Assembly: GCA_905178155.1 (NCBI GenBank)
Contig: CAJINV010000027.1
Location: 272,656-336,655, forward strand
Length of the DNA stretch: 64,000 bases
Source of the DNA: Amoebophrya sp. A120
Taxonomy: Eukaryota; Protista; Dinoflagellata
Reading direction: 5' to 3'
This document shows positions 2,720 to 60,080 of this stretch, piece after piece (the stretch's first letter is position 1; every line of letters begins with the position of its first letter). The notes under the pieces were generated by a model. The model was not told the DNA's origin and made no database searches. It saw only the letters and a list, made by a program, of their open reading frames with translations. The position numbers and the translations under genes were made by a program.

Positions 2720-5700
2720 ATGCGGGGCATCGGGAGCAGCATGACGAGTATGCTGCGCTATCCAAGAAAAAAACGTTTTTAGTGTAAAGTTGTGATGCGC
2801 AGCATGCAAGATGATTGCGTCTCTCATGCTTGGCATGCCTCGTAGGGTCCATTAAAGGGCGTTTTCACGTACTATCTGCGCATGCCAGGTTTTTACTATC
2901 ATGCCAGACAAATTTGTAATGCTGTTCCTCCAAAAAAGTTACACCTACAATGCTTTTTTCTTGGATATGCGCTGGCGCAACTCCAGCGCGACGCCCCTGC
3001 AGGCCCAACTGAAGGAGGCGCTAAACAACAATAACTGGGGCTGTAGCATATTGTGAGGAAAATGAATCCGCGAGAACCGTATTCGATTTGGCATTTGTGT
3101 TGCTGGATTTTTAATACCTGTCCTCCGTCCGCTGAATCAGCATGAGAGAAAAAATCTTAATCTGAATATGGAAACGAGGTGGATTTTTCCTTGTGATATG
3201 GCAACACGATTCTCTACGACATCGCCAACCAAAGCAACTATTATCCAGCGTAAAAAAACTGTATCCTAAAACTACCTGAGTTGTCATGCATATAATGCAG
3301 CAGGAGTCTTTCTATGCGGCTTTTCCGCCCAGAGATACAACTCTCGTCCAAGTGTGCTGCAGACGATTTTGTTATGCAACATGCTCTCGTCACAAGAAGC
3401 AAAAGATGGGGCTGTACTAGGGAATAAGCAGTGCGTGTGCGCTGTGTATCCAAAGTTGCCCTTTGTGAGTCCAAAAACCTCTGCACAATCAGTCCAGCAC
3501 ATCAAGCCGCATCTTGAATCGGGGTTGTTCTTGGAAAAATTTTTACGTAGGGGTCCGGCGAAAATCCTCCTCTGCACGATATGCGGGCGTTCCTTGGCCA
3601 AAAGACTGCCGGGCATCGTTTGCATTTCCAGCTGGAAAATGCTGAGGGACCCGGAAGGAGGGTTTGCAAATGTCCTCCTCCGCACCGTATGGGGGCTTTC
3701 CTGGGCCCAAAAACTGGGCGACGTTTGGATTTGAGGGGGGAAATGCTTAGCGACTCGGAAGGGGGGTTGCAAAAATGCTCCCCGGCAAGGTATGCGGCCC
3801 CTTTTTGGCCCAAAAAGTGGCCGGCCTTTCGTCTCCAGCTGCAAAGGGTTGGGCACTCGGAAGGGGAGGTTGCGAAAATCGTCCCCCGCACGTTCTGCGG
3901 GCTTCAGGCGGTTTGTACTGCTTTCCGAAACCTTTTGTGTCAAGGTCGAGTGCCCGATCATGAGGCCCGCCCGATGTTATGGTCAGCAATAACCGGCTGT
4001 CCATATTGGCCTGCAAGGCGAAACGCTCACCGGGTGAGCGTTTCGCCTAAGAAGTCCATATTGGGATCTTTCCCACCACAGCACACCGTCGTGCTTCTGG
4101 CTGTTTGTGCTGCCTTTTGAAACCTTTTTTTGCCAAGTTCGAGCGCCCTTTCGTGAGGCCCGCCCGACGCTATGATCGACACAAGCCGATTATCCATATG
4201 GACCCTCAAGGCGAAACGCTCACTCGGTGAGCGTTTCGCCTAAGAAGTCTATATTGGGATCTTTCCCACTACAGCATACCGTCGTGCTTCTGGCTTGTTG
4301 TTGCTGCTTTTTGAAACCTATTCTGCCACTTTCGAGCGCCCTTTCTTGGGGCCCGCCCGACGCTATGGTCGACACAGGCCGACTATCTATATGGGCCTCC
4401 AAGGCGAAACGCTCACCGGGTGAGCGTTTCGCCTAAGAAGTCTATATTCGGATCGTTCCCACTGCAGCATGCCGTCGTGCTTCTGGATATTTGTGCTGCT
4501 TTTTGAAACCTATTCTGCCAAGTTCGAGTGCCCTTTCGTGAGGCCCGCCCGACGCTATGGTCGACACAGGCCGATTATCTATATGGGCCTCCAAGGCGAA
4601 ACGCTCACCGGGTGAGCGTTTCGCCTAAGAAGTCTATATTGGGATCTTTCCCACTGCAGCATACCGTCGTGCTTCTGGGTATTTGTGCTGCTTTTTGAAA
4701 CTTTTTTTTGCCAAGTTCGAGTGCTCTTTCTTGAGGCCCGCCCGATGCTAAGGGCGACACAGGCCGATTATTCATATGGGCCTCCAAGCCGCATCTTGAC
4801 TCTGGGTTGTTCTTGGAAACATTTTTACGCAGGATAACCACCAGCTGCAGCCGATCTTGGAGGCTATCAACCAGGTATTTAGGGGAGAGTGCATAGACAA
4901 AATGATGATCCTGTCAAGTGCATTCTATGGGACGAGCTGCAAGACAAATTATTGACTTCATTTTTCTGTAACGCATGGACAGTAGCTCCGAACTTGTGTT
5001 TCTACTGCATAAAGATGTCAAGAGCAAGAAATTTGTATTGCATGAACACGGGTTGTTCCCACCTTCATATTATTCCCACCTCCTCATCATCAAAAACTCG
5101 TTTTCTCAGGCGTTGGCCGAGCGTGACGGACGACGATGGAGGCGTGTGTGGAAGGCGCTGAACTTATCACAGGAAGAAAGTCCTTCTCCTCCGTGGTATA
5201 CTAAATGCAAAACGGAAAAAATCTTTGTCGTGCTGATTTGTCATCTTCAGAAGCCCCACTTTGCGGGCGGCCCACTTGGCATCGGTCATTTAACGTGCCA
5301 TTCTGGGATTCGTAGCCTTCTCCTGTCGTGGAGAGCTGGCAAATAGGTACTAACCCCTTCGTCCCATGGCATCATGACAAAATGATTTGTGTACACAAAT
5401 TTCGCAGCAGAAGTTTCCGTTTGGGTAGTGGGGGGAGGATTTTTCATTTTGACAAAACTTGATCGAAATCATCTTGAAGCACGGCGAAAATCCGATGTTC
5501 GAGGAGAGCATGAAGGCAGACCAGTATCCTGTGTAAAAACGCCCCTACCCCAGAGTTGTCATGCAAAATGGCATCCCTGAAATGTTTCTTATGCACGACG
5601 CCATGTTGAGGAGCATTTTGTAATGCTATCTGGAAGTTTGTCATGCTGAAATGAGGACAAGGTAGCCAATTTGTCGTGCGGTTGCACTAGCTAAACACGT

Positions 5701-8700
5701 TTACACTACGATGCCAAACTTGTCATGCGTGACTGCCAGAATTTCTGGACTTGTGTTGCAAATTTCCCATCTTGACTTTGTCGTGGGGACGTTTCTACGC
5801 AGGATAACCAGTGGCGAGTAATCTACTTTCTCGACTGGCGCTTACGGAAATGAAAATCCCTTCTCTCCTATCAAATGTAAAAATGTCTGGGTCTGGATGA
5901 AGATTGCAACTTGTGATGCTGTCTCTGCATTATACAAAAATGTGTATTGCATGACCAGCAAGAGGGCTCCAGTTTGTGCTACATGGAGAGGGTATTTCTC
6001 ATGCGGGATAGGCATCAGAAAGCCCGCTAAAAATCTGTGATGCCAGGTTACGCATTACAGGCGTCATGTGTCATGTAAAATCTGCATGACATCCAGACCC
6101 AGACATTTTTACATTTGATATCTCCAAATTCAAAACACGAAGGATTTCTCTTGCTGGACTTGTATATAGCAATCAGCTTTGTGGTCGAGCGCCCGGGGAT
6201 ACTCAGCAAACCCGGTCGCCTCGGTCTGTTTAGGTGCATTGGGCAGTGCAGCTGTTGAGCCCCCTTAACCGGCTCGGTGTCTCCTAGTACTTTCCTTCTG
6301 TCATGCAAGAGAAATAAGCTACTTGTTTTATACGCATTTTTTACAAACCAACACATCTAAACAAATTTCCACTCAGAACAATATGGGGGGGGAGATTTTT
6401 TTTTCCTGCCACAGCGCTACCAGGAGAACCAGAAGGACGTCACTGCGGGGATCCGTGACAAGGCCAAAAAGATTATCCCTGTGTAAAAATGTTGTGGCCC
6501 TAGATTTGTCATGCATATTTCCACGCCGCTGCCCAGGACGCTTCTCATGCTCAGCTGCATGAGAAGCGTTGTGTTCTCGTGGTGTTGTGGAAAAATTTGT
6601 CATGCCTTATACAGGACGAATTGGTGAATTTGTGATGCGACTAGCATAGCCATTCTTGTTACTCAGGATAAAGATCCAGCAGTTGTTGCAGGACCCGGAC
6701 CTGCTGCGAAAGGAGCGGGCGGATGCGCGACAGATCGCGAACAAGCTGCAGCTATGCATTGCAAATATCGATCTGGGTCCGGAATAAAGGTGGAACTTGT
6801 AATGCTGCTCCTACATGCGTGCGAAATCTGTATTGCATGACCAACAAATTATGTCGTAGCCTGTTTCATCTAATCCGGACTGCGTACGAGAACGCGTTCT
6901 GGAAACTTGTCATGCTTGTCTACATTCGGAAGTGTTTTCATCATGCACAGTTCAGCATCACAAATCTCCAGACCCACAAATATTTGCAGTTGATAGCAGC
7001 CGCCCTCGATGTCAGGCGGCGGTGGCGGCGGGATGCCGCAAAGCGGCTTGGCTGCAGGCCCCGGGCCATATCGCAAGAAAAAACTGTTTCACTGTGAACT
7101 TGTGATGCATACAATGGAACACAGAAGTATTTGTCTTGCCACACATGCAAGAAAGTGGATTTTTAGCTGTGTTTTCCCTTAGGAAGCTTGCGTGGCAAAT
7201 TTTTTCTGTCACGTAGAACGAACTTGTCATGCAAAACCTGCAAAATCATCACAGTGAAACAGTTTTTTCGTACGATAGGCCAGGCTACGGAAATAATGCA
7301 GGTTCGAGCTACAACGACGGCTATGGCAACAGTGCGTCGGTGTCGTACGGCTACGGCCCGACGACCACGGGAAGTGGCCTCTACGGCACCACGCAAGAAC
7401 CGATGTCAGGAGGGAGACCAGTGGACCGACCAGACTACAGCTTTCGGGCTTACGACCGCGATTTTTTGGGCGCCGGCCGTCCGGAAACCACGACGTTTCA
7501 GTCTTCCTACGCCGCCTCTGGTGCGCCGCCGTCGCTCCAGGTACCACCACCTAGTTCGGCGTCCCGAGCATTGCGACGCGACGTTCCGGAACCAAATCCA
7601 GCAGAGCCGAGTACTTCTAGCGCGGGTAATTGTCTATGTCTACAAAACATATGCAAAAATTCAGCGGTGTGCGTTTTTGTCATGTGTGTCTTGTGTCAGG
7701 TGTATGTAGTTTGATAAATGTACTAGTCTTTGTCACTACGTCGCTGAAAGAGAGTAAAAATGACACGCATGATTGATAAAAATTTTCAGATTCGCGAAGA
7801 CGGGTTGTCCAGGTTTGCGGGTGTACAGAAACGGAAGCGGATTATCATGTGAGAAATATCATAGTTGCTGGCTTGCATTTTGATGTTGTGCATGCAATTT
7901 TGAATTACAAGTCTTCGCCTTCGCGAGGAAAAGATTTTAATTTCTCATGCAGTTCTACTCCGTCACCAATTTGTTTCTTCAATCTATAGGAAAGAACAAA
8001 CCTTTTGTGCTTGCTATTTTTTGTGCAGCATTTTACAAGCGTCTTTGATGACAAAATGTACTGTCGCACGCTGGCTTCTTTCTCCGCTATCCCAGCCGAT
8101 TGCTGCGCGCGGCAGACGGAAACGTGGAGGACGCGTGCAACAAATTTTTTGCCCAGGCCAACAACGAGCCCGAGCTCGAGGCGCCACGAAGTGCCCAGGA
8201 CCAGCGGGATTCGGGGCCAGCCTCTTCCGACGAAGACGAGGAATTGGACGAGATGCCGAGCGGTAACGACTCGTCAGAGCCGGACCATAGTCCGGAGGTC
8301 GGTCCGCGTCATTACGCACAGCGAAAATGTCTGGGTCTGCGAAAAATGGAGTTTGTCATGCTATGTTTCGATCACGCAAAATGTTGTATTGCATGAGCAG
8401 GGGCAAAAAATCTGTGAAACTAGAGCATACTAGCTTGACGAAAATCGCGGGTCATCATGTAAAATCTGCATGACAAACTCCTCCAATTTTCCAGACGCAG
8501 ACATATTTGCACTGCATTGTGGTCTCCAACCCCAGATGTCAGGACAAGTAATGCCACCGCAGCATACCAATGCTTCGCAACCAGCGACGTGGGACCAGCA
8601 ACAGCGGGCACAGCAAGCGGCCAATATGCATTGCAAATACAGCTAGGTCTGGAAATAGACTGCGGATTTGTGTCATGTAGCTCTTGGACCACAAAAATGG

Positions 8701-11700
8701 AAAAAGCAACACGGGTCTTGCAACGACTTCTCCAAGCCTTTTTGCGTAGCAACAAGTAGGCAGCTTTTGGCGGTCTTGCAACACAGATTTTTGTGTGCGC
8801 GTCCCGAGCAAGCATCGCAAATTCGCTTCTTGCCTGACCCAGAGATGTTTGCAATGAATAGGCAGCGTCCGGCAGCAGCCGCAGGTACCGATGGAGCAGC
8901 GGCATATGAAATGCAAATATGTCTGGGTCTGGGAGTTTCTAAACTTGTGATGCTGTGTCTGGATTCCAAGAAAATTTGTATTGCATGACCAGCAAGAGGA
9001 CTCCAGTTTGTGCTACGCGGACGAGAGGACATTTCTCATGCGGTGCTGGCATCACAAAGCCCTCGCAAAATCTGTGATGCTAGAGGATCCATCACAGACA
9101 TCACGGGTCATTCAAAATATGCATGACAAACCTGGCAATCTTCGAGACCCAGACATGTTTGCATTTGATACGGCAGCAGCCAGCGCAACAGGGGGCGAGC
9201 CGCCAGTTTTCCCAGCCGTCAGGGTCGCAGCAGTACGGTACCGCGCTGGATGCACAAACTGGTATCAAATGTAAAAATGTCTGGTTCTGGAAGGATGCAA
9301 CTTGTAATGCTATTTTTGGATTCTAAAAAAATCTGTGTTGCATGACAGGCAATAGGAGTCCAGTCTTTGCCACGTGGAGAGGGCATTTCTCATGCAGGAT
9401 ATGCATCAAGACGCACTCAGAAAATCTGTGATGCTAGGGCATAGATCACAGCCGTCATGGGTCATGTCAGACGTGCATGACAAACAAGGTCATGGCGCGG
9501 GGACAGAGTCCCCGCGGCTGCGACCTTGCGGCTAAGAAGGGCCACCCGCGGTGGCTTTTCTTGCCCATTATGCGGCAGGTTTTTTTTTTGCGACAACACG
9601 GGGTGGCTTGGCGCTCGTGGTGCCGGCGCCCCCCTGGAACAGTGCGCCTTTTTCTGCGCCCCTGGGCGGGGCGCCCCCCCCCAAAGGACTACCCACGACC
9701 AACCGAGGGCGCGGCCGTCCGGGAGGTTGTTCTCCCGAACCAGGGCGCGCGGGCCTGTTTCTGCGCCCCTGGGCGGGGCGCCCCCCCCAAAGGACTACCC
9801 AAGACCAACCGAGGGCGCGGCCAGCCATACCAGGGCGCGTGGACCTGTTTCTGCGCCCCTGGGCGGGGCGCCCCCCCCCCAAAGGACTACCCACGACCAA
9901 CCGAGGGCGCGGCCGTCCTGGAGGCTGTTCTCCCGAACCAGGGCGCGCGGGCCTGTTTCTGCGCCCCTGGGCGGGGCGCCCCCCCCAAAGGACTACCCAA
10001 GACCAACCGAGGGCGCGGCCTTACCAGGGCTCGTGGACCTGTTTCTGCGCCCCTGGGCGGGGCGCCCCCCCCAAAGGACTACCCACGACCAACCGAGGGC
10101 GCGGCCCTCCTGGAGCCTGTTCTCCCGAACCAGGGTGGGCGCGCGGACCTGTTTCTGCGCCCCTGGGCGGGGCGCCCCCCCCAAAGGACTACCCACGACC
10201 AACCGAGGGCGCGGCCTTCCTGGAGCCTGTTCTCCCGAACCAGGGTGGGCGCGCGGACCTGTTTCTGCGCCCCTGGGCGGGGCGCCCCCCCCAAAGGACT
10301 ACCCACCCACGACCATGCGAGGGGGGGCGCGGCCACCTTCCTGGAGCCTGTTTTCCCGAACCAGGGCGCACAGAACTGTTTCTGCGCCCCTGGGCGGGGC
10401 GCCCCCCCAACAGGACTACCCACGACCAAGTGAGGGGGGGCGCGGCCTTCCTGGGGGCTGTTAGTTCGCTTCGCACTCCCGAATCAGGCCGCGCGGACCT
10501 GTTTCTGCGCCCCTGGGCGGGGTGCCCCCCCCAATGAATAGGCAGCCAACCTTTGGCCGCCGGGGTCGGGCCTGACTCTTGAAAAGTGGCCCCCGGGGCC
10601 GGGTGTTCCTTTTCCGAAGTCAGGCGGGGGGCATATTTTGGGTTGTGCAGGAGGTTTTTCTTTTTGCCGGTTCGGGTCGTGTTTGATACCCCGGAACAGG
10701 GGTCGGAACATACTCCGCAACACACCCCAGAACACACCCCGAAACACACCTCAGACCATGCCCCGAAAGCCACTCTCCGAAAGTCAGGTCCGGGGTCGGA
10801 CCCGACTCCCTAAAAGTGACCTCCGGGGCCGGGTGTCACTTTTCCGGAGTCAGGTGTGGGGTATGTTTTGGGGGGTGCAGGACGTTTCTGCCGATTCAGG
10901 TCGTGATTGATACCCCGGAACATGGGTCGGAACATACCCCCGAACACCCCCCGAAAACTCATTTTTGGGCAGTTGCTGCAGTTCAAATAGTAATCTTCCA
11001 ATCTTCCAGACCCACACGCTTTTACACTTGATAACTGGTACGTATAGCGGATTCTCGCAGTCGCAGCAGCAAGCTCAGAGTCGTGCACCCTACAGCCAGT
11101 ACGGGCAGAATTTGGGTACTACCAATCCGCTGGCACAGAATCTCTCCATCGGCGGCTCGCAGGTTATCAAAATGAAAAGCGCAGCCCCGTCTCCGGACTC
11201 GTTTCAAATGTTTGCGCTGCAAAGTTTTCAAGTGGGCGGGCTTTGTCGTGTATGCTCGGAATAAAATTCCAGTTGCTACAATATGCAAGGCTTCCGGAAT
11301 ATTATCATTTAGGAAAATTTGCAATGCAAATGTGTCCACGTGCTTCGGTCGCGAGGGCAGTTTTTATTCTGATACAGGTGCAGCAAAATCAGCTGCCATA
11401 CAACTCGACGCAATCGGCCACACTACACCCCTCTGGTATGCAAGTACCCATGGGCCAATCGGGTCCGCAACAAGGCACTGGTATCGACTGCAAATATGTC
11501 TCGGTCTGGGTAAGAGCACGCGAACTTGTCATGCTGGGTATATAGCATGACAAAGCAATGTTTTATAGAGCATGAACGCATCACAAATCTTTCGGCTGTT
11601 GTTGCAAGGTGAGTCGTGTTTTGCATGACAAACTCCCTCTTCGAGCATGACAGAAAAAATGGTCACTCCTATTCAGGCATCACAAATCTTCTTATGCTTC

Positions 11701-14403: not shown

Positions 14404-17400
14404 ATGGCGCGTACATTTCTAATGCGGCTTTGCTGCTTATGCAAATTCGCCATCGCCGATTTTGACTTCGAAAGCCTGTTTGGCAACGTGGGACTTGAAT
14501 CGTGGGATAAATATGCAGCCAGCGACGCGAATGGCGACGACGCGAATGATCTCGCGGAAAAGTTGGAAGAATTCTCCAATGGTAGCTACGAGTACGAGAC
14601 CGTGAGATTAAGCTGGGACGGCATTTTGTTAGTCGACTGGAAAACACTCGCACACACAAGAAACGCACGCCGGCCCCACTTGCCTCGCTCGTTCTAGTGG
14701 TTCAATTTTCCCAATTCGAGCAAGCAAGCGACGCAGGGTCGCGTGCTCCGTTCGCATTCTGTTTTGAGATGCACGAAGAAGAATCAGCGCACTCTGCCCA
14801 TGAGTTCCACGAACGGCGCGCGGCGTGGCGTGGGCTCGTGAAATTTCTGGGACGAATCTCAGCCACAGTGATGGCGGCAATATTAGTTCTCAGCCCCAGG
14901 AGGCTCAGTCGTGTGGGCCATATCCAAAAAGGGTCGCTCGAAACCTAATTTAGCTTCTGCCGCTCGGGCTTGCAGAAGGAAATAGGATAAGCGACAGCAG
15001 CGCCCTGCGGTTTTGCACCTAGTAAAATGCCGGGAAACTGGCGGGGCCTTTTCTGTAAGATCTAAGACACGGCGGACCGTTTTGTCGGTCTTGCACTTTA
15101 AAACAGGCCACGTTGGCTTTCAGCCCCATCGCCTCCGCTATCCCGGTAACCCTAGCGAGGCCGCACTGACTTGGGAGAACACCACCGGGGGAATAGAATA
15201 AGAAAATAGCTATCGGCCAACATTCCGGTCCGCTGGGTTTTTCGTCGGGTTGTGGTATTTCAGGGGGGGAAAATCAGGCGCCGACTGGGGCTGTCGTGTT
15301 GCGTGTGTGCGAAGTCGCTTTCCATAGCCGCCAGATGCCGGGCGACGTACCGAATAGGGAACAGTTAGGCGACTACGACTTTGACGGCGACGGGGCTTTT
15401 GGGCTCTCAGAGATGAAGATCATGCACGACCTGAAGCTCGGCGACGCCAACGGAGTTGGTGAAGGCGTGGCGAAGCTCCTGTGCCCCAGCGATTGTGACG
15501 TGTCGAAGTACGACCTGGACGAGAACAACCACTATTCGCACACTGAGCTGAAGTTTCTTGCGAGGTCAATAAAAGACCAGGGCGGTGAGCTCCCAGACTG
15601 GAAGGGGTTTGTTGGACTTTGAACACACCTGCCACACTGAGTGCCTGAAGCTTCTAGCTGGCGAGATGCCTCGCAATCCCCCAGCGCTTTAACCCCTCAG
15701 CAGACAGGGCGAAAGCCTCGGGCTGCGTTGCATCCATCCCGTGGCGCCTCAGCGTTCAAGGCGCACCACCGCCATCATGCCATCAAGCTGGGCTCTGGAG
15801 GTACCTCAGACCCGCCATTCAGGTCTCGAGCCATTTCCGACCTCCCTCCACGTCGTCGCTGATGGATTTGATTCGGGACCGAGGTCCTGGGTAGAGGTTT
15901 TACTCAGGGCGGCGGCTCTGGATAAAGTACCTGCTCAGGATCTGTATACCCTGAAAGCAAGGACCCAGAGTGGGGCAGCCCACTCCGCGACGGCTACAGA
16001 TGGGAAGGTAGACCCAGATGACCGCCTGCCCATTCTGGGAAAGGTTTTTATTCAGGGCGGCGGTCCTGGATAAAGTTTGCACCCAGGGCGGCAGTCCTGC
16101 GGCTCAGGTCGCGAACAGGATCTGAACCCGTCTTCAATTCATCTGTCATTATTTGCATTTGTGGAACAGAGGACGGCTCGGGACCTCATAGAAGCTTCAG
16201 GCCTGCGTGGGGGGAGGGTTTCGATCGCATGACCGAAAAACTTTGACAAAGACGCGGCCAAGGTTGTGTATCCCGACCAGCTAACCAAAATCGACAGCGG
16301 CAAAGACTTTATAGACATCTTCGACACCGATACCGACGGCTGGTATTCCTTCCACGAGTTGAAGGCGATGCAACAATTTCCTAAGCACGGTCCGCAGCAC
16401 CTGAAAGAGTACTACGACATGGACGGCGACGGGGAACTTAGTCACTACGAAGTCAGGCTCGCAATGAGCAGGGCCGCGCATGTAACGGTCGGCGCCATCT
16501 ACAACGAGCAGGGCGGCGACGTTCATGCGGAACAACGTTCCGACTTGGAGCTGTTTACGAAGATTTCATCCTCGGGTGAAGACCACAAACTCGAACCAGA
16601 AGAGGCACGACTGGCGCTTTGGCACGAAGGTGAGAAATATGATCGGGCCGAGTACAACCATGAGCAGAACGAGCAGCTCGCTGAGCACGTAAAAGCGGGA
16701 GGACACAACTTAGCCTACCACGACATCATGAGTGACACGAATCACGGCCACCACAACCTCGCCCATGCAAAGTGGCAAAAAGTACACGACGTACTGCAAA
16801 TAAACGGCTACCTGTCGGAGAAGGCGTTCGAGCTGCGGGACCTGGATGGCGACAAGAAGATTAGCAGCAACGAGCTCAATATGATCGTGAGAAAAAACTG
16901 TCTCAGTCTCAACTTGTAATGCGCAACTTGTTCCTTCAGACAGTTTTTTGTCGTGCTCGACATGCAATCAAAGGAAACTCCGTACGTGTTTTCTCTTGCA
17001 TGTAAACAGTCACAGATTTTGCGTGTGATGCTAAGGAAATTTGTGTATCTGAAACTGCAAAGGTCTGAGACAGAGAACGTGTTTTCGTACGATACCCAAA
17101 GTCGCCGGCTTGCTGGGAAACGATCTACAAACGAAAGGCAAGATAGCCGTCGACAAAGCAAAGGTTTTGCTCCAGAGCATGAGCGCGACGAGCGACAACC
17201 CTTTGAAGCAGTGTACGGACGAAACAGGGTTCTGCGACTTCAACGGCGACGGATCTTTGACGGCTGAAGAAATCAAGCTTGCGAAACTCTGGGACGACAG
17301 TCCGCCCACTGCAAAAGTGAGTACGATTCTGGGAGATATCTTCCCCGACGCCACGGATTCGGAGATCAAAGGAGCTGACTTTGACGGTGACGGTGTATGG

Positions 17401-20400
17401 AATGTAAACAGGTCTGGGTCTGGAAAGGAGCTGTGATGCTGAATGGTCAGGATTGAGTCCGCCTTTAAATGCAGTGAAGCATGACAAATTATTTATAGAA
17501 CGCTTTCTCATGCGTGGTGCGCATTACAAACTGCGACAGTGTTGCATCCGTGAGGTACTTCTGTTGCTTATGCAATACCAATTTTTCTGGAATGCGGGAC
17601 ACGCAATACCAGATTTTGCACATTTCCAGACCCAGACGTATTTGCAGCGCATACGGTATCCTGTTGAACAACGTACCCCCTCTACACTTGCCACACAGAT
17701 TTGCTTGTCCCGCACAATTCTCATGCCGCTACCCACGGAAGCCGTTTTCCCCATGGGAGCCGTTTTCTGGTGGTGTTTGGAAATTTGTCTTGCGTTGTGA
17801 TCAGGATCAGAACGTCGGATTGTGATGCGGATGAACTAACTAGACACGACAGTCTTGCATGGCCAAGCTCGTCATACGTGAGCGCCAAAACCTGTCGATG
17901 TTTGTGATGTCCAGCCGATTTACAATCTTAACAAGGGGGGCCCGGACGTGTGTTTTCACAGGATGAACGGGCACCTGTCACAGAAAGAAATCGCGCTCCT
18001 GACTTTTGTATCAAAAAGACAAGCGCCCCACCACAGGATGTGGAACACATATATACACCCGACCTATAGACCATAACATAGTAGCCTGCGTCACAAATCG
18101 TTTTTTTCCACCCGTTATTCTGTCTTTTTCCTTTTCTCAATGTAATTCATTTTTTGTACGTTCTCTGTGCTGTATAGTTGTCTTGTCTCCAGAACACATA
18201 CTCCGGGGTGTGGGAACGCCCAGGGACACTTCGCCGGGGAACATTTCCCACATTGTATGCATCAGCATGACAAATTTTTAGCCCAGAGCAGCGACACTCT
18301 ACGTTGCACGATATCTGTCATGTCCTGGCGCGTTAGAGTCTGAACGAAAATGCGTCGCGTTCCCTCGATGCTACACAAAATCAATACAAACTGGCCGGTC
18401 GTCTGGTGGTGGGGCACTCTTTTCATTTTCATACTTTGAGCAGCAAGACCCTGACGATTTTGACCCGGACTCAGCAGCCAATAAGAAGTATCTTGACTAA
18501 AAATGTCCCAACCGCAGAGTTGCCATGCGGATTCTCAGTTGCAGGAAGATTTGTAATGCGCATCCCCACGTTGGGAATTCTTTGGCGTGATTTTTGATGT
18601 TGTAATAACACGATAGGCCGACGGCTCTGCGATCCACGGCTGTGCTTGCTAGCTTGCACTACACTACAGAGGAAAAATTGTCATGCGTAACTCCCAAAAC
18701 TTGATGGGTTGCGTAAACCACGTACCCATCTTGACTCTCGGGTGAGGACGTTTTTAGACGGGATAAAGAGTTGCTCCCAGCTATCCTCGGTAGCGATCAT
18801 CGCTTGGACTCTTACAAAATGCTGGATGGCGATGACAAGAAGCTCAGTCTGGAGGAGCTGCGGCTCGCTGTAAAACATCCGGAGACGAAGGATCTGCTGA
18901 CGGCGCAGGATCTTCACACGGTTGCCGACGCGATGTTTCCATCCGTTATCAAACTGAAAAGTGCCGGCCCCCAGAAAATACCGCGCGACGATTTTGTCTT
19001 GTGACGTTTCTCCATGAGGCTTTTTCGTCTTGCACAGAGATAATGCGAGTCGGCATACCATGACAGACGATAGTGCCTGTACTCTGCCTCTGTGCAAGGC
19101 AGAAGAACTTCGCTATTCTGGGTTGAAAACTAGAGTTGCTGCTACACAGATGGGTGTAAATATGTTTCTACAGAGTGAAGAACAGTGTTTGTATTGCAAA
19201 AGAACCAGAAGTTGCGCAATACAAACACTTTCCCGGTCTGTGGCGGGTGGAGCAATTTTCAGTTTGATAATAAGGTCCGATAACGCACACATGCTCGACT
19301 TTAATGGAGACGGAAAACTCGAGAACAGTGAATTGCTATCCAAAAAGAACATAAAAAGTGCATTGTTGGTGTACCTCTGTCTTGCAGAATCTATGCATCT
19401 TACGGCCAGGCTACTTGCAGATAAGTAAATGGCTGCACGTACCAGAGATGCATGGTAATTTTTTTGTATACATGCAGCTCTAATTTGTCGTGGTGCCGTC
19501 CCAAAAAGGTGTGCCCAAATGTGGAGGTTCTTTTCTTGGATAATTACTGGCGGCTGGGCAATTGGGGGCGCTGGTGAACACCAACGGTAAAGCGGTTATC
19601 CAAGGAAAAAAGGGTTACAGTATACACATTTGTCGGAGTTTCTGCATGACAAAGAAAACCTGTGATGCGCAGACTATAAGGGAAAACACGATTGAAATGA
19701 GGCTGGCAAGCGTTTTCTGCATGACAAATGTTACCTGTCTTGCTTGTTTCGCAACACAGTGCGTAACTGTAACACTTTTTTCTTCGCATACCGGTAGACC
19801 TCGAGTTATTGCAGGACCAGCTGGACGCGCTTCCGTCGGGTTTGCGGTATTGCAAGGAAAACGCCCACCTCCCCATTTTGAAAACGTATCTTCTGAAAAT
19901 TTGTGATGCGGATTTCGACCACAAACCCTGTCTGTCTTGCGAGAAGGCAAATCCAGGCTCTCTGCTACGCTATGCAGGCGATTTGTAATGCTGTAAGGAC
20001 TACAGGACAGCCGTCTACCATGCTAGGCGCCTACACCAAAGGGCCCCTATCTCGGCTGGCGATCTGCGTGCAGTCCTCTACTGCAAGACAAATCTGATTC
20101 GTGTACGCAAATCCAGCATCACAGATTTCCTTTTCGATATAGGGAGGGGGGATTTTTCCTTTTGATTTGCGGCAAACTGCGCTGACGGGAATATCCTGCG
20201 ACGGCGACCAAAACTTCGACCTGTGGGAGCTCGAGCTTTACGTAAAGGCGGGCGGATTGACGACGGAAAAGGTGCACGATTCGGCAATCCGTGGCATCTT
20301 GGATCAGGCCAGCGCTACAACCATCTCCAAAGAAGAGTTCGACAAAATCAACTTTGTAACCACGGGCCCGAAAGAAATCACCGCAGAGCTTCCGATGGAG

Positions 20401-23400
20401 TGGCCCGACTTTATCGTGAAGAAAAATCTCCCCCGCTTTATTGCTCTGAAAGGAAATTATCTCTCATGCTGGAATTCTGTACGCAGGTCAGTATTGCATT
20501 GCTAGAAGGCAAGAAGGAGATTCACCCTTGGCCGTTTTGGCAGGCAATTTGTAATGCTATTCCGGGCAATGTAGTGCCCGCCTGCCAAGCGGAATACGCA
20601 ACGCGTTTCCGTGCCAGACAGCAATACAGTTCGAACCTCCCCTCATCTCCCAGCACCACGGCAACTTGGTTTATTGCGATCACAAATCGTGCTTTCTACG
20701 AATTTCGTTTCAGTGTGGGCTGGGGACGACAGGTTTTTTCGCTTCGACACACTTCCTATCAACTGTAAAAATGTCTGGGTCTGGAAGATTCTGACACTTG
20801 TCATGCACGTTTTGCACTAGCCATGATGTCTGTAATGCATACCCTAGCAATACAGATTTTTTGAGGGCTTCTTGATGCGTATTCCGCATGACAAATGCCT
20901 TCTCAGCGTAGCAAAAATTGCATTCCCTTTTCTACTCATGCAATACAGATTTTTTTGGAGGCCAAACGCAGCATCACAAGTTCTATTCTTTCCAGACCCA
21001 GACATTTTTGCATTTGATACTTCCTGCGGAAACTCGACTCGGGGACGGGAAACGATGATATCAAATGCAAATATGTCTGGGTCTGGAAGATTACAGACTT
21101 GGCATGCGCATTTTGCATGATCCATGATGTCTGTGACGCATGCCGTAGGATCGCAGATTCTGTGAGGGCTTATTGATACCTATACCGCATGAGAAATGCC
21201 CTTCCGCATGGCAAAAACGGAACTCCTCTTGCTCCCCACACTAAGCAGATTTTTGTAGAATCCAAAGGCAGCAGCATCACAAGTTGCAACCTTCCAGACC
21301 CAGACATATTTGCACTCGATAGATGACGGCAAGGTGCAACTGTCGGAGCTCCAAGACTACCTGGTGGACTTGAACGGCGTTCCCCAGCCTGGCATGTCGC
21401 TGGGCTCCGTAGCAAACGCGATCCCGTATACGCCGGCTTCGCCTCTGGCTTTAGTTGGCCTGGCGGCGGGCGGCGGGGCTGCTTTCAGCAGAGTATTTTC
21501 AAGTAAACCGAGCCGGAAGCCGATCCCACTCTCGCCGAAAGCGCGGAGGGAGCGCGCGGCGCAACAAGCGGAGGCCGAGGCCACAGAAAGCGACGATGTT
21601 GGCAATGATGCTGGTACAACTCCAGCAGGAGACGCCCTCCAGTACCGATACGGCCATCTGCCGCCACCAACAGTAGTCGGACCAGCGCCCGCACCCTGGG
21701 TACCGCCGAGACCCGTGCCCTACGTCAAGCCCCCCGTGCCGGTGAAACAGACCCCCGCTCCGTCCCCCGAGAACCATCGAAAAGGCGGTCGCAGCCGGTC
21801 GATATTCAATATCCTGGGTAAAAACGTTCCCACCTTAGGGTCAAGAGGGGGATTTGGCTACACAAACCAACGAGCCTTGTGTGTTGCGCATGACAAGTTC
21901 CGGCCCGTGGTGCACCACCCGTGTTTAGCTAGTGCAGCTGCATGAGAAATGCATCAGCTCAAGCTCCTTCTACTGTGACAAAGGCTAACCCCAAAAAACC
22001 CCTACAACATGCCTGTCATGCCGCTCCACATGAGACACGTTACCGTTGCAGTTGTACAGATTTGCATTCTACCTTCCCTGCGTGACAGCCATCTGCGGCC
22101 GTTTGCAAAGGGGGAGGCAAAGTGTGCCGCACTTCTGTTTAGCATGACAACTCTAGGGTGGGGACGTTTTTACTCACGATATATAAGGAAGGGACGGACA
22201 TCCACACTGGAAATAGGTTGATAGCCTGCTCAGATGTTACAGTAACAGTCTTCAATGCTACAATAAAGTCTTAGTTTTGTCCTGCATGATCACCAGCATG
22301 AGTACTAACATGCAGAGACTTGCGCTTTTCGCAATACAAATTTCGTCGAATGCTGCTTCGGTTCGGCGTTCCAGACGTTGTCATGCGCCTTTCTGTGATG
22401 GCGGACCAGAGCACGCAGTTTTTGCATCACAAATTGCAGGGAATTGTATGGATGTACTTTTCTCGTGGGTAGCGAACAACTCAGCACAGACGGCACAGAA
22501 GCAGAAGAGACGATCAGCCACGAGAGAGACGCTCGCGGGCAGCGAGCAACTCAGCACCGGAGAAGAAGAGACGGCGCAGACGTAGCGGGAATACCAAGTT
22601 TAGCTTCCTCGAGGACGGAGCCGTGGAACCAGCCCGGGTATTCCAGGAACCCACCCTCGCGTCCCGTGCGCCGTTCGGCGAAGAGGCACGGCATGGGGAC
22701 CACGGCACGGAACACGCCGTTTCCACCGCTGGCAACGAACCTAGGGAGGGCGCCGACGCGAACGGGCTCAACGTCTATCCAGTGCAAATTTTAGTGGATC
22801 TGGAAAAATGGTACGTGGATTGCTTGTCTTGTATTCCCGTATTAAATCTGTGTTGCATGATGACTAAGAAAAGCGCCGCGGCCGTTTGTGTCATATGAAA
22901 ATACAGTTTGTAATGCGCACTATGCATGAAAAAACACTTGAAATATTCGTCATGCCTGGCTTCACTAGGAAGGCTATTCAATTATGCCCACGCAGAATCA
23001 CCAGTTTCCAGACCCAGACATATTTGCAAGGCATACCGCCGCAGACGAGCAGACGGAGGACGGCAGTACGGTGGAAGGAAGTACGGCGGATGGGAGTACG
23101 GTGGAACCGGACGGGCCCAACGATGGCGCAGACGAGCAGCCGGTGGAGGGAGGTACGGTGGAGCCGGACGGGCGTAATGACGGCGCAGACGAGCAGCCGG
23201 TGGAGGGAGGTACGGTGGAACCGGACGGGCGTAATGACGGCGCAGACGAGCAGCCGGTGGAGGGCGGTACGGTGGAACCGGACGGACGCATCGACAGCGC
23301 TGGCGAGCAGACGGTGGAAGGAAGTACGGTGGAACCGGACGACGGCCCAAGCGAGCAGACGGTGGAAGGAAGTACGTTGGAGCCGGACGGGCCCCGCGAC

Positions 23401-23646
23401 GGTGCAAACGAGCGAGCGGTGGAAGGAACTTCGGTGGAGCCGGAACGCAGCAATCTGCGTGGCGGGCTAGCGCAGGGAGCGAGGAAACGAAACGACCACG
23501 TGCGGCAAACGGAGCCATCAGTGGGTGGACTGCAGCTGGTGAGCATCCCGTGGAGCAACGCGTACTACGAGTGGTTAGTGGTTGGTGTGCTCTTGCTACC
23601 GTTCCTCTACTGGCTCCGGGCTGTGTGGTGGCGGCGCCGGCAGTAG
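14404..23646 (+). CDS. Large multi-EF-hand type I membrane/surface protein with 19-aa stalk repeat, about 15 introns
   Basis: Signal-like N-terminus (MARTFLMRLCCLCKFAIA). Many DxDGDG-type loops across exons (DFDGDGAFGLSE, DLDENNHYSHTE, DTDTDGWYSFHE, DMDGDGELSHYE, DLDGDKKISSNE, DFNGDGSLTAEE, DFDGDGHLSQKE, DFNGDGKLENSE). C-terminal TM helix plus basic tail (WLVVGVLLLPFLYWLRAVWWRRRQ*). Some junctions unresolved; it could be two genes. Confidence 0.72.
16880..17094. mobile_element. Introner related to 7069-7277
   Basis: TSD ctcaa/cccaa; restores NEL|KVAG. Confidence 0.72.
17396..17653. mobile_element. Introner family A
   Basis: A-type TIRs; left TSD cggtg, right TSD split by the next element. 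Confidence 0.85.
17657..17965. mobile_element. Introner family B inserted in the TSD of the previous element
   Basis: tatcctgttgaaca / tgttttcacaggatg; TSD tacgg/aacgg. Confidence 0.82.
18489..18765. mobile_element. Introner family B
   Basis: B-type TIRs; TSD agaag/aagag. Confidence 0.82.
18947..19269. mobile_element. Introner (tatcaaactgaaaa TIR)
   Basis: Perfect 14-bp TIR; the TSD-like tccgt/tccga is offset by 6 nt on the right. Confidence 0.75.
19337..19542. mobile_element. Introner
   Basis: tatccaaaaagaac / gttcttttcttggata; TSD attgc/attac. Confidence 0.83.
19597..19790. mobile_element. Introner
   Basis: aaaaaagggttacag / ctgtaacactttttt subterminal IR; TSD gcggt/ccggt. Confidence 0.83.
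19848..20167. mobile_element. Introner family C (opposite orientation to 1670-1988)
   Basis: Perfect TSD tgcgg; its right part is the reverse complement of the left part of 1670-1988. Confidence 0.86.
20412..20749. mobile_element. Introner (C-like)
   Basis: tatcgtgaagaaaaa / ttttttcgcttcgaca; TSD gactt/cactt. Confidence 0.8.
20757..21019. mobile_element. Introner family A
   Basis: A-type TIRs; perfect TSD cttcc. Confidence 0.92.
21059..21321. mobile_element. Introner family A
   Basis: A-type TIRs; perfect TSD gatga. Confidence 0.93.
21810..22181. mobile_element. Introner family B
   Basis: B-type TIRs; TSD ttcaa/tataa. Confidence 0.83.
22776..23035. mobile_element. Introner family A
   Basis: A-type TIRs; TSD acgtc/ccgcc. 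Confidence 0.8.
23041..23445 (+). repeat. Coding minisatellite, 57-bp unit (ADEQPVEGGTVEPDGRNDG)
   Basis: Unit starts at 23128, 23185 and 23242, with degenerate copies on either side. Confidence 0.9.
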
Positions 23647-57600: not shown

Positions 57601-58196
57601 ATCGGCAGCGACGGTTCGCAATGCCTCGCATGCTTTGAGTCGCTCGGTGGCGTCTTTTTTTTCCAACCGGTTGCGCGGCAACTGCCGCCCCAGGCGGCGG
57701 AAATGTCGGCAGCAAGCAGTTGGCTACTTGGGTTGCAAAACTGAACAGGCTGACCGCCATACCATCAACAACTGGAGCCGGTGACTTTTTTCACCGGCAG
57801 CGTACTACGGGCAGCCTGGCGCAGAATGTTACAAACCGACCCAGCCGAGCAGCTTCCTACGAGCAGGACCGCCTCCGTCATGGCGTGCGAGGTAGAAAGC
57901 GCGAACGCGGAGAGCCGCCACGCCGCACGGCACTACGCGCAGCCTGTTGCAGAACGTGGCAAACCGAACCAGCCGGGCAGCATCCAACCGGGCCGCCTCT
58001 CTCATAGCATCTGGGCGGGGAAGTGCGAAACCGGGCAGCCTTCTATCCGCGCGGTACTATGCGCGGCCTGGTGCAGAACGTTGCAAACCGAGCGGGCCGG
58101 GGAGCTTCCGACCGAACAGCCGGGAGGCGCGGACCCGGACCGCCTCCGATCCGCGCGCTGACCCTAAAAAAAAAAGCCCAAAACTGGCCACCTTGG

Positions 58197-59566
58197 GCGT
58201 CGATTAGCTCTCCACGGTGGGAATCTGGCCGCCCGTGGTCCTTTTTGCTGCCGGTCTTGGTTTGGGGTTTTAGAATCCCCAAACCCGTGGAACTTGGCGC
58301 CGGAGTTTTCTCGTTGAAACTGTAATCGACGCGGCCCGCGTCGATTAGCTCTCCACGGTGGGAATCTGGCCCCCCGCGGTCCTTTTTGCTGCCGGTCTTG
58401 GTTTGGGGTTTTAGAATCCCCAAGGCCGTGGAACTTGGCGGCGGAGCTTTCTGGTCGAAACTGTAATCGACGCGGCCCGCGTCGATTAGCTCTCCACGGT
58501 GGGAATCTTGCCCCCCGAGGTCCTTTTTGCTGCCGGTCTTGGTTTGGGGTTTTAGAATCCCCAAGGCCGTGGAACTTGGCGGCGGAGCTTTCTGGTTGAA
58601 ACTGTAATCGACGCGGCCCGCGTCGATTAGCTCTTCACGGTAAGAATCTGGCCCCCCGTGGTCCTTTTTGCTGCCGGTCTAGGTTTGGGAGTTTAGAACC
58701 CCCAAGGCCGTGGAACTTGGCGGCGGAGCTTTCTAGTTGAAACTGTAAGCGACGCGGCCCGCGTCGATTAGCTCTCCACGGTGGCAATCTGGCCCCCCGT
58801 GGTCCTTTTTGCTGCCGGTCTTGGTTTGGGATTTTAGAATCCCCAAGGCCGTGGAACTTGGCGGCGGAGCTTTCTAGTTGAAACGGTAATCGACGCGGCC
58901 CGCGTCGATTAGCTCTTCACGGTTGGAATCTGGCCCCCCGTGGTCCTTTTTGCTGCCGGTCTTGGTTTGGGATTTTAGAATCCCCCGGGCCGTGGAACTT
59001 GGCGGCGGAGTTTTCTAGTTGAAACTGTAAGTGACGCGGCCCGCATCGCTTAGCTCTCCACGGTGAAAATCTGGCCCCCCGTGGTCCTTTTTGCTGCCGG
59101 TCTTGGTTTGGGCTTTTAGAATCCCCAAGGCCGTGGAACTTGGCGGCGGGGCTTTCTAGTTGACACTGTAATCGACGCGGCCCGCGTCGATTAGCTCTCC
59201 ACGGTGGGAATCTGGCCCCCCGTGGTCCTTTTTGCTGCCGGTCTTGGTTTGGGATTTTAGAATCCCCAAGGCCGTGGAACTTGGCGGCGGAGTTTTCTTG
59301 TTGAAACTGTAAGGGACGCGGCCCGCGTCGCTTAGCTCTCCACGGTGGGAATCTGGCCCCCCGTGGTCCTTTTTGCTGCCGGTCTTGGTTTGGGGTTTTA
59401 GAATCCCCAAGGCCGTGGAACTTGGCGACGGAGTTTTCTTGTTGAAACTGTAAGGGACGCGGCCCGCGTCGCTTAGCTCTCCACGGTGGGAATCTGGCCC
59501 CCCGTGGTCCTTTTTGCTGCCGCTCTTGGTTTGGGATTTTAGAATCCCCAAGGCCGTGGAACTTGG
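58197..59566. repeat. 141-bp satellite (~9.7 units)
   Basis: gcgtcgattagctct recurs at 58197, 58338, 58479, 58620, 58761, 58902 and onward. Confidence 0.96.
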
Positions 59567-60080
59567 AGCAACTTTTTTCGGGTCTGGTCTCCTTTCCGGG
59601 GCCATACCAGGGGGGAAAGGGGCAGCAGATGAAAATCTTTGCTCCGGGTCGCGCGAACTCCGCGCCACCCGGGACAACTTTTTTCGGATCTGGTCTGCTT
59701 TCCGGCGCCATACCATGGGGAAAAGGGACAGCAGATGAAAATCTTTGTTCCGGGTGGCGCGAACTCCGCGCCACCCGGAGCAACTTTTTTCGGATCTGGT
59801 CTGCTTTCCGGCGCCATACCATAAGGGAAAGGGGCAGCAGATGAAAATCTTTGTTCCGGGTGGCGCGAACTCCGCGCCACCCGGAACAACTTTTTTCGGA
59901 TCTGGTCTGCTTTCCGGCGCCATACCATGGGGCAAAGCGTCAGCAGATGAAAATCTTTGTTCCGGGTGGCGCGAACTCCGCGCCACCCGGAGCAACTTCT
60001 TCTGGATCTGGCCTGCTTTCCGGTCCCATACCATGGCGGAAAGGGACAGCAGGCGAAAATCTTTGTTCCGGGTGGCGCGA
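59566..60080. repeat. 106-bp satellite (~4.8 units)
   Basis: gatgaaaatctttgttccgggtggcgcgaactccgcgccacccgg recurs every 106 bp. Confidence 0.95.

Follow-up and report, generated by a model that had tools for sequence, protein, structure and literature searches.

The window, that is, the whole 64,000-nt stretch of Amoebophrya sp. A120 DNA analyzed here, carries many short elements with inverted-repeat ends, which form repeat-end families of 10-12 copies. Three of them, named E1, E2 and E3, lie close together in one gene (Table 1). The transcript of this gene was followed in contigs of four sequencing runs (X3-X6), which derive from one sample and are called RNA-like because their RNA label is a guess, no listed run being recorded as RNA. 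Of eleven listed runs, six (X1, X3-X6 and X9) were compared with the window. Twelve observed pieces between 17097 and 23154 join into 1888 nt with one open frame that includes the residues PDFLRK across E1 and E2. We infer that this transcript also includes an open frame further upstream (16233-16877); that frame matches the EF-hand domain of Pfam with an E-value of 2.5e-6, and the exon at 17098 matches it weakly. Two of the four gene pieces tested had no match in Pfam. Near the end of the gene (23037-23645), 57-nt coding repeats are followed by a hydrophobic stretch ahead of the stop codon and, as read by eye, the product may be a membrane-anchored EF-hand protein.

Elsewhere in the window, exon pieces at 4800-7300 resemble, as judged by eye, an ENTH/epsin-type gene with many introners. 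Two long elements (9263-11033 and 3242-4836) have family-type ends and internal tandem arrays with units of about 110 nt and 193 nt. Paired elements are nearly absent from 40000-64000, where tandem arrays of 141 nt (58056-59624) and 106 nt are present together with duplicated blocks (45892/55108 and 57054/62299).

Table 1. Features of the E1/E2/E3 stack and of two reference sites in the same gene (window coordinates)
Feature	Position	Strand	Basis or remark
Interlocked pair, 3-nt gap	17396..17965	.	joint 17389>17967
Control intron	18947..19269	.	joint 18945>19274, no sliding, 4/4 runs; k=4
Upstream coding exon	20172..20410	+	last codons P-D; putative borders from the -1/+4 register
E1 left target duplication GACTT	20407..20411	+	sequence
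E1 introner, 338 nt, degenerate inverted repeats	20412..20749	.	missing from RNA-like contigs
7-nt gap CACTTCC	20750..20756	+	sequence; DNA contig
Putative net 2-nt exon TC (predicted, not directly observed)	20754..20755	+	simulated -1/+4 excision
E2 introner, 263 nt, near-perfect 30-nt inverted repeats	20757..21019	.	ends match 28/30
Net exon of 34 nt separating E2 from E3	21024..21057	+	joints in 4/4 runs
E3 introner, 263 nt, duplication GATGA	21059..21321	.	ends match 28/30; starts 39 nt after E2

A set of relatives was collected from one related public assembly by a pattern scan on one repeat family, giving at least 151 loci (L001-L151; 624 kb merged), among which neither the locus of the window itself nor an orthologous one is listed. 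In these listed related loci, 388 elements were called vs none when the sequence was reversed, and of 293 strong repeat pairs from the loci and the window, 226 have perfect 5-nt flanking repeats; the 5-nt duplication is therefore not a product of chance. Element lengths in the same material peak at 250-274 nt. A motif of TAT, seven nucleotides and at least three A fits E1-E3 as well as the 388 related elements, and a repeat-end matrix was built from about 410 elements. Copies similar to E2 occur in the related assembly, the best relative among the matches listed being L142 (94% identical across its length); E1 has no match of at least 150 nt of its own in the listed related loci. The elements are short, with terminal repeats, a duplication of fixed size and no ORF (coding capacity being judged from length only), as is typical of MITEs. 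They also share the features of Amoebophrya-type introners, namely inverted repeats, a border direct repeat of 3-5 nt, the A120-type motif, repetition in the genome and, in the one sample, removal from RNA without GT-AG. Target 5-mers show no splice-signal bias, with G at position 4 at a frequency of 0.31-0.34 vs a background of 0.30; an enrichment of G at that position, first an impression by eye from the window, did not appear when 190-312 oriented duplications from the listed related loci were counted. A search of viral contigs gave no matches.

Re-examination of the sequence confirmed the extents that the initial annotation had given for E1, E2 and the 7-nt gap between them, and also the third copy, E3, beginning 39 nt further on. 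The gap consists of the right duplication of E1 (CACTT, 20750-54) and the left duplication of E2 (CTTCC, 20752-56), which overlap by 3 nt, so that the two target sites are 2 nt apart. CTTCC stands on both sides of E2 (20752-56 and 21020-24). The two duplication copies agree at 5/5 positions for E2, 5/5 for E3 and 4/5 for E1, where the first base of the left copy, the G of GACTT, is retained in the transcript and the right copy has C instead. The ends of E1 are degenerate. Of 13 candidate right ends tested (20743-20755), 20749 gave the best duplication match (4/5) among the 10 that were scored. The E1 ends are pairable at 13/20 positions and compatible with TAT-N7-AAA, the right end beginning with TGT and scoring 4.9 vs 21-24 for E2 and E3. 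A DNA contig of run X1, which may be the source sample itself, reproduces 20137-20780 without mismatch, crossing the gap and entering E2 by 24 nt.

In 4/4 runs, the RNA-like contigs match 20166-20407 at every base and show the joints 20407>21019 and 21053>21322; the other exons are likewise covered free of mismatches. By the record coordinates, exactly 35 letters lie between 20407 and 21322 in all four runs, with no extra letters, and the bases expected of a micro-exon are present in frame among them. The cDNA that had been predicted, an in-frame PDFLRK product with no frameshift, is thus what the contigs of all four runs contain. The initial annotation had also argued that this frame needs exactly two nucleotides from the gap. 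The frame is as proposed, but the need would follow only if the cuts had fixed positions with respect to the repeats, as ACTT occurs twice, once at 20408-11 and once at 21019-22, where its A is the last base of E2. The mature mRNA consequently leaves the micro-exon unproven, because a single cut of 611 nt would yield identical letters, the joint sliding by 4 nt. Among the X3-X6 contigs, which show the major form and drop rare ones, no intermediate is listed that lacks just one of E1 and E2 and retains the other. The raw RNA run X9, probably from another strain, contributed 95 partially matching reads that fall on repeat ends, none of them in the exons upstream of E2. Low-depth contigs of X4 were also seen inside intron sequence at 18503-18668 and 22185-22505, and represent either pre-mRNA or DNA carry-over.

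Information on where such elements are cut comes from the neighboring introns. In all nine simple introns of the gene with RNA joints, the removed length equals the element plus 5 nt, and the only register common to the nine has its cuts 1 nt upstream of the left repeat and 4 nt downstream of the right repeat (-1/+4, or k=4). Four bases of the duplication are then retained from its left copy and one from its right. The two offsets always sum to 5 in simple introns, so they are not independent measurements. The control intron has flanking 5-mers with no base in common, which pins the register exactly, the sole such junction of the nine; its cut skips an in-frame 4-nt repeat located 6 nt past the end of the element. 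As this intron is cut at -1/+4 without a remaining duplication, the direct repeat is not what guides the cuts. Three more introns (19337, 21803 and 22776) allow only k of at least 4; altogether, four of the nine exclude a 3' cut before +4 and five permit one. The weakest case is the element at 21803-22471, whose left end (score -7.7) was placed by hand with knowledge of the junction. From these junctions we infer that the cuts are measured from the repeats. The direction of mismatches within duplications was also considered as an RNA-free test of the register in the listed related loci and was uninformative, with 11-14 mismatches at every position.

Two further observations concern these neighbors. 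At 18947-19279, six extra bases separate the right end of the element from an apparent old copy of its duplication, and the fixed cut inserts two additional codons in the protein. An older element, 21803-22471, apparently has another (21810-22181) nested within it, 7 nt in from its left end, the joint being 21801>22476.

When E1 and E2 were excised in silico at -1/+4, either order gave the observed mRNA and retained 20754-55. The E1 intron would then extend over 20411-20753 with ends TT..CT, and the E2 intron over 20756-21023 with ends CT..TC. One cut across both elements in the standard register leaves 61 nt vs 63 nt, 2 nt short, and any single cut that gives the correct product ends at +3 or earlier. 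The two bases in question had been named as CC; under the -1/+4 register they are TC, and CC would result from a register of five instead, the net length being 2 in both cases.

A second tight pair, at 17396/17657, bears on the same question. Here, the left repeat of the element 17657-17965 is interrupted after 2 nt by the element 17396-17653, and the net exon is negative, yet the site is resolved in the RNA-like contigs. The observed joint is the product of removing the upstream element first, a step that rebuilds the TATCC start of the outer element. With the reverse order, the codon would be another synonymous one, and a single cut obeying the rule would leave 2 nt too many. Treated as one cut, this pair needs element+7 and E1+E2 needs element+3; both are reproduced by two successive +5 excisions. 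An automatic scan that needs intact ends found no complete nested element in the window or the listed related loci, and it misses the window's own nested cases.

On these grounds, we consider it likely that E1 and E2 are removed successively, each at a fixed distance from its own repeats, leaving a net 2-nt exon TC. In the proposed course of events, the -1/+4 register would apply to E1 and E2 too; E2 would be the younger insertion, having landed 2 nt beyond the target site of E1; and each excision would restore the pre-insertion sequence, so that the two bases become the end of a long exon and need no exon recognition of their own. The catalyst could be a divergent spliceosome or another enzyme. 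The intron-autonomous recognition put forward in the initial annotation is supported by the cut register and the interlocked pair, whereas the frame argument originally given for it is insufficient.

Predicted folding adds to this picture. Within 20390-21040, the predicted fold consists of two separate hairpins; for the left end of E1, pairing reaches -18.2 kcal/mol with the right end of the same element vs -5.5 kcal/mol with that of E2, and the own-end duplex of E2 reaches -44.1 kcal/mol. The right end of E2 pairs still more strongly with the left end of E3 (-46.7 kcal/mol) than with its own left end, and crossed pairing dominates the equilibrium fold of E2+E3, yet the intervening exon is present in 4/4 runs. 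Because equilibrium folding would pair these two ends, excision would probably be early and mostly 5' to 3'. The most favorable stem of E1 is offset by 3 nt from the register of its duplication and motif (-103.9 vs -100.6), which makes a pure hairpin ruler a poor fit for E1. Taken together, the modeled crossed E2/E3 pairing and the stem shift of E1 suggest either early, ordered excision or a machinery that reads the motif rather than the most stable stem. As a separate observation, the facing ends of E2 and E3 (20990-21088) could form a hairpin stronger than that of either element itself; none of 102 adjacent pairs in the listed related loci has a facing hairpin of this kind.

The main competing reading is that E1, the gap and E2 leave as one 611-nt intron between the ACTT copies, in which case the micro-exon does not exist. 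It predicts the same mRNA, and the contigs report one joint, 20407>21019, which can slide by 4 nt; no intermediates are listed, the right repeat of E1 is degenerate, and splice sites are described as variable relative to the hairpin in the part of Farhat et al. (PMC7789003) available to us. However, such an intron requires a removal of element+3 vs the +5 of 9/9 simple introns, and its 3' cut could fall no later than +3, something that 4/9 of them exclude. Moreover, the outer ends would pair weakly (-5.5 kcal/mol), the control intron skips an available direct repeat, and the pair at 17396 would demand the opposite shift (+7). We regard the composite intron as unlikely, though it deserves to be kept in mind. 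A genuine micro-exon, with both flanking introns recognized simultaneously through exon-bridging or helper factors as in animal microexons, is compatible with the mRNA, and the depletion of net exons under about 25-30 nt in the listed related loci could reflect an exon-size constraint. Two bases nevertheless offer too little space for two complexes, an argument made along the lines of the accessible part of PMC4674806, and the interlocked pair at 17396 is resolved despite its negative net exon; this makes simultaneous recognition very improbable. Still harder to credit is that the joined contigs are DNA, from an intron-free allele or a retrocopy, and hence uninformative on splicing. What speaks for it is that X3-X6 are RNA by guess only and stem from one sample; against it, each of the 11 junctions is joined, the product mixes bases of the left and the right copy where the duplications differ and includes 19274-79, beyond an element end, depth is zero in most intron bins, and the DNA run X1 contains the elements.

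Beyond successive excision as such, a ruler-type machinery might read the repeat motif itself and cut at -1/+4 regardless of the flanks, element by element on nascent RNA. We hold this stronger version to be a tentative idea with the chances against it. Instead of a spliceosome, such a machinery may perhaps be a domesticated transposase-like factor or an endonuclease acting together with a ligase.

The initial annotation had also suggested that elements insert preferentially near the ends of existing ones. Spacing in the listed related loci does not bear this out, as short gaps are depleted and it is the range of 35-84 nt that is in excess. Measured from each right end to the left end that follows it, the 366 gaps include 0 at 1-4 nt, 3 at 5-24 nt (one of which is an internal motif and not a real end), 7 at 25-34 nt, 133 at 35-84 nt and 15 at 85-104 nt; the rate at 35-84 nt would predict 53 at 5-24 nt (P about 2e-19). 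Net exons below 25 nt number 7 of 158, vs 40-93 expected under truncated exponential models. A relaxed scan over 968 strong ends gave just three matches with spacings up to 12 nt, each of 6 nt and all of one internal motif; it recovered one of the two short cases of the window, and a partner with ends as poorly conserved as those of E1 would escape the automatic scan. The shortest real related gaps listed, at 7930-7947 and 8978-8992 of locus L062, measure 16 and 13 nt, with net exons of 11 and 8 nt. In the window itself, candidate right and left ends stand 4 nt apart at 5011-5016 (scores 9.8 and 8.0).

The 13 gaps of the window gene are 301, 3, 43, 55, 181, 67, 54, 57, 244, 7, 39, 481 and 304 nt; the 39-nt gap before E3 is typical, and two of the 13 are below 10 nt. 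Random placement in this gene would give one net exon of 2 nt or less with P=0.19 and two with P=0.016. Contrary to a reading without preference, the proportions 2/8 and 1/158 differ (Fisher P=0.006), in a gap comparison that is biased both ways, the window being hand-curated, the loci being picked by one repeat family and many contigs ending at elements. A small excess of very short gaps is possible, and the very short gap between E1 and E2 probably reflects a rare accident that is tolerated rather than a favored site. Selection against complementary facing repeats was tried as an explanation of the short-gap depletion and rejected, since 102 adjacent and 1178 distant pairs are alike (P=0.86) and there is no trend with gap length (rho 0.10, P=0.30) in the listed related loci. 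The gaps at 35-84 nt form a sharp-edged, box-shaped distribution in the same loci, without bias toward any frame (53/50/52). Their excess could possibly arise from chromatin spacing, a transposase footprint, selection or assembly, and is a new lead.

In the accessible text of Farhat et al. (2021, PMC7789003), Amoebophrya introners are described as elements of ~250 nt with terminal inverted repeats and border direct repeats and without GT-AG. A 5-bp border repeat is given as an example (legend of Fig. S19), TAT followed by 7 nt and at least three A is reported for strain A120, the border is left unresolved with the repeats 1-5 nt from the splice sites, and the splicing mechanism is stated to be open. 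The anatomy found here is the same; what differs, relative to those parts of the paper, is that a single register accounts for all junctions. The main text of the paper contains no mention of micro-exons, short exons or exon definition. In the literature covered, with subscription journals mostly outside it along with figures S19-S23 of that paper, the register, micro-exons and ordered excision are unreported for these elements. The register and the serial logic thus appear new, for a class of elements already known.

Several known systems resemble the present one in part, as far as the available portions of the sources go. Nonconventional introns of Euglena also lack GT-AG and have paired motifs near their ends, with cuts at fixed spacers outside the motif (PMC12501133, PMC6221363), the spacer on the acceptor side tolerating some change (PMC12501133). 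Their motif is CDG/CHG with spacers of 3 and 5-6 nt, compared with TAT-N7-AAA and 1 and 4 nt here, where the spacers, unlike those of Euglena, are parts of a transposon target duplication; the two are alike in working but different in family. In fungal stwintrons, as described in the portions available, the inner intron breaks an end signal of the outer one and is removed first, both being canonical U2 introns. The inner element at 17396/17657 likewise interrupts the end signal of the outer one, and the order of removal would be similar, but the putative ends are not GT-AG at both ends, so that these are not canonical U2 introns and the pair does not belong to the stwintrons; E1 and E2 are adjacent rather than nested. 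The single-nucleotide exon of Arabidopsis APC11 is constitutive and explained by intron definition and successive removal in the accessible part of PMC4674806; there, in contrast to E1/E2, the flanking introns are canonical and did not arise from two transposon insertions. According to the consulted portions of reports on Polarella, Symbiodinium and Aureococcus (10.1101/2020.10.14.339549, PMC9860276), introners form introns of the element plus one duplication copy and leave the coding sequence unchanged. Those introners recruit GT/GC/GA and AG from the duplication, a bias that the 5-mers here do not have. Nested or merged introner copies are known from Micromonas, as noted in the available text of PMC3879977.

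Taken alone, the tiny exon is a curiosity, 1-nt exons being already known. Closely stacked pairs, on the other hand, are natural experiments that set serial against composite excision, and annotation would be corrected at such sites, where aligners report the pair as a single intron. If the fixed -1/+4 register is true, it would allow exact prediction of borders that are now ambiguous, in tens of thousands of cases. If the reading as a motif ruler is also true, adjacent, overlapping and nested stacks would be undone exactly, with exons down to 2 nt or below zero, and the missing mechanism for the non-canonical introns of Amoebophrya would be supplied.
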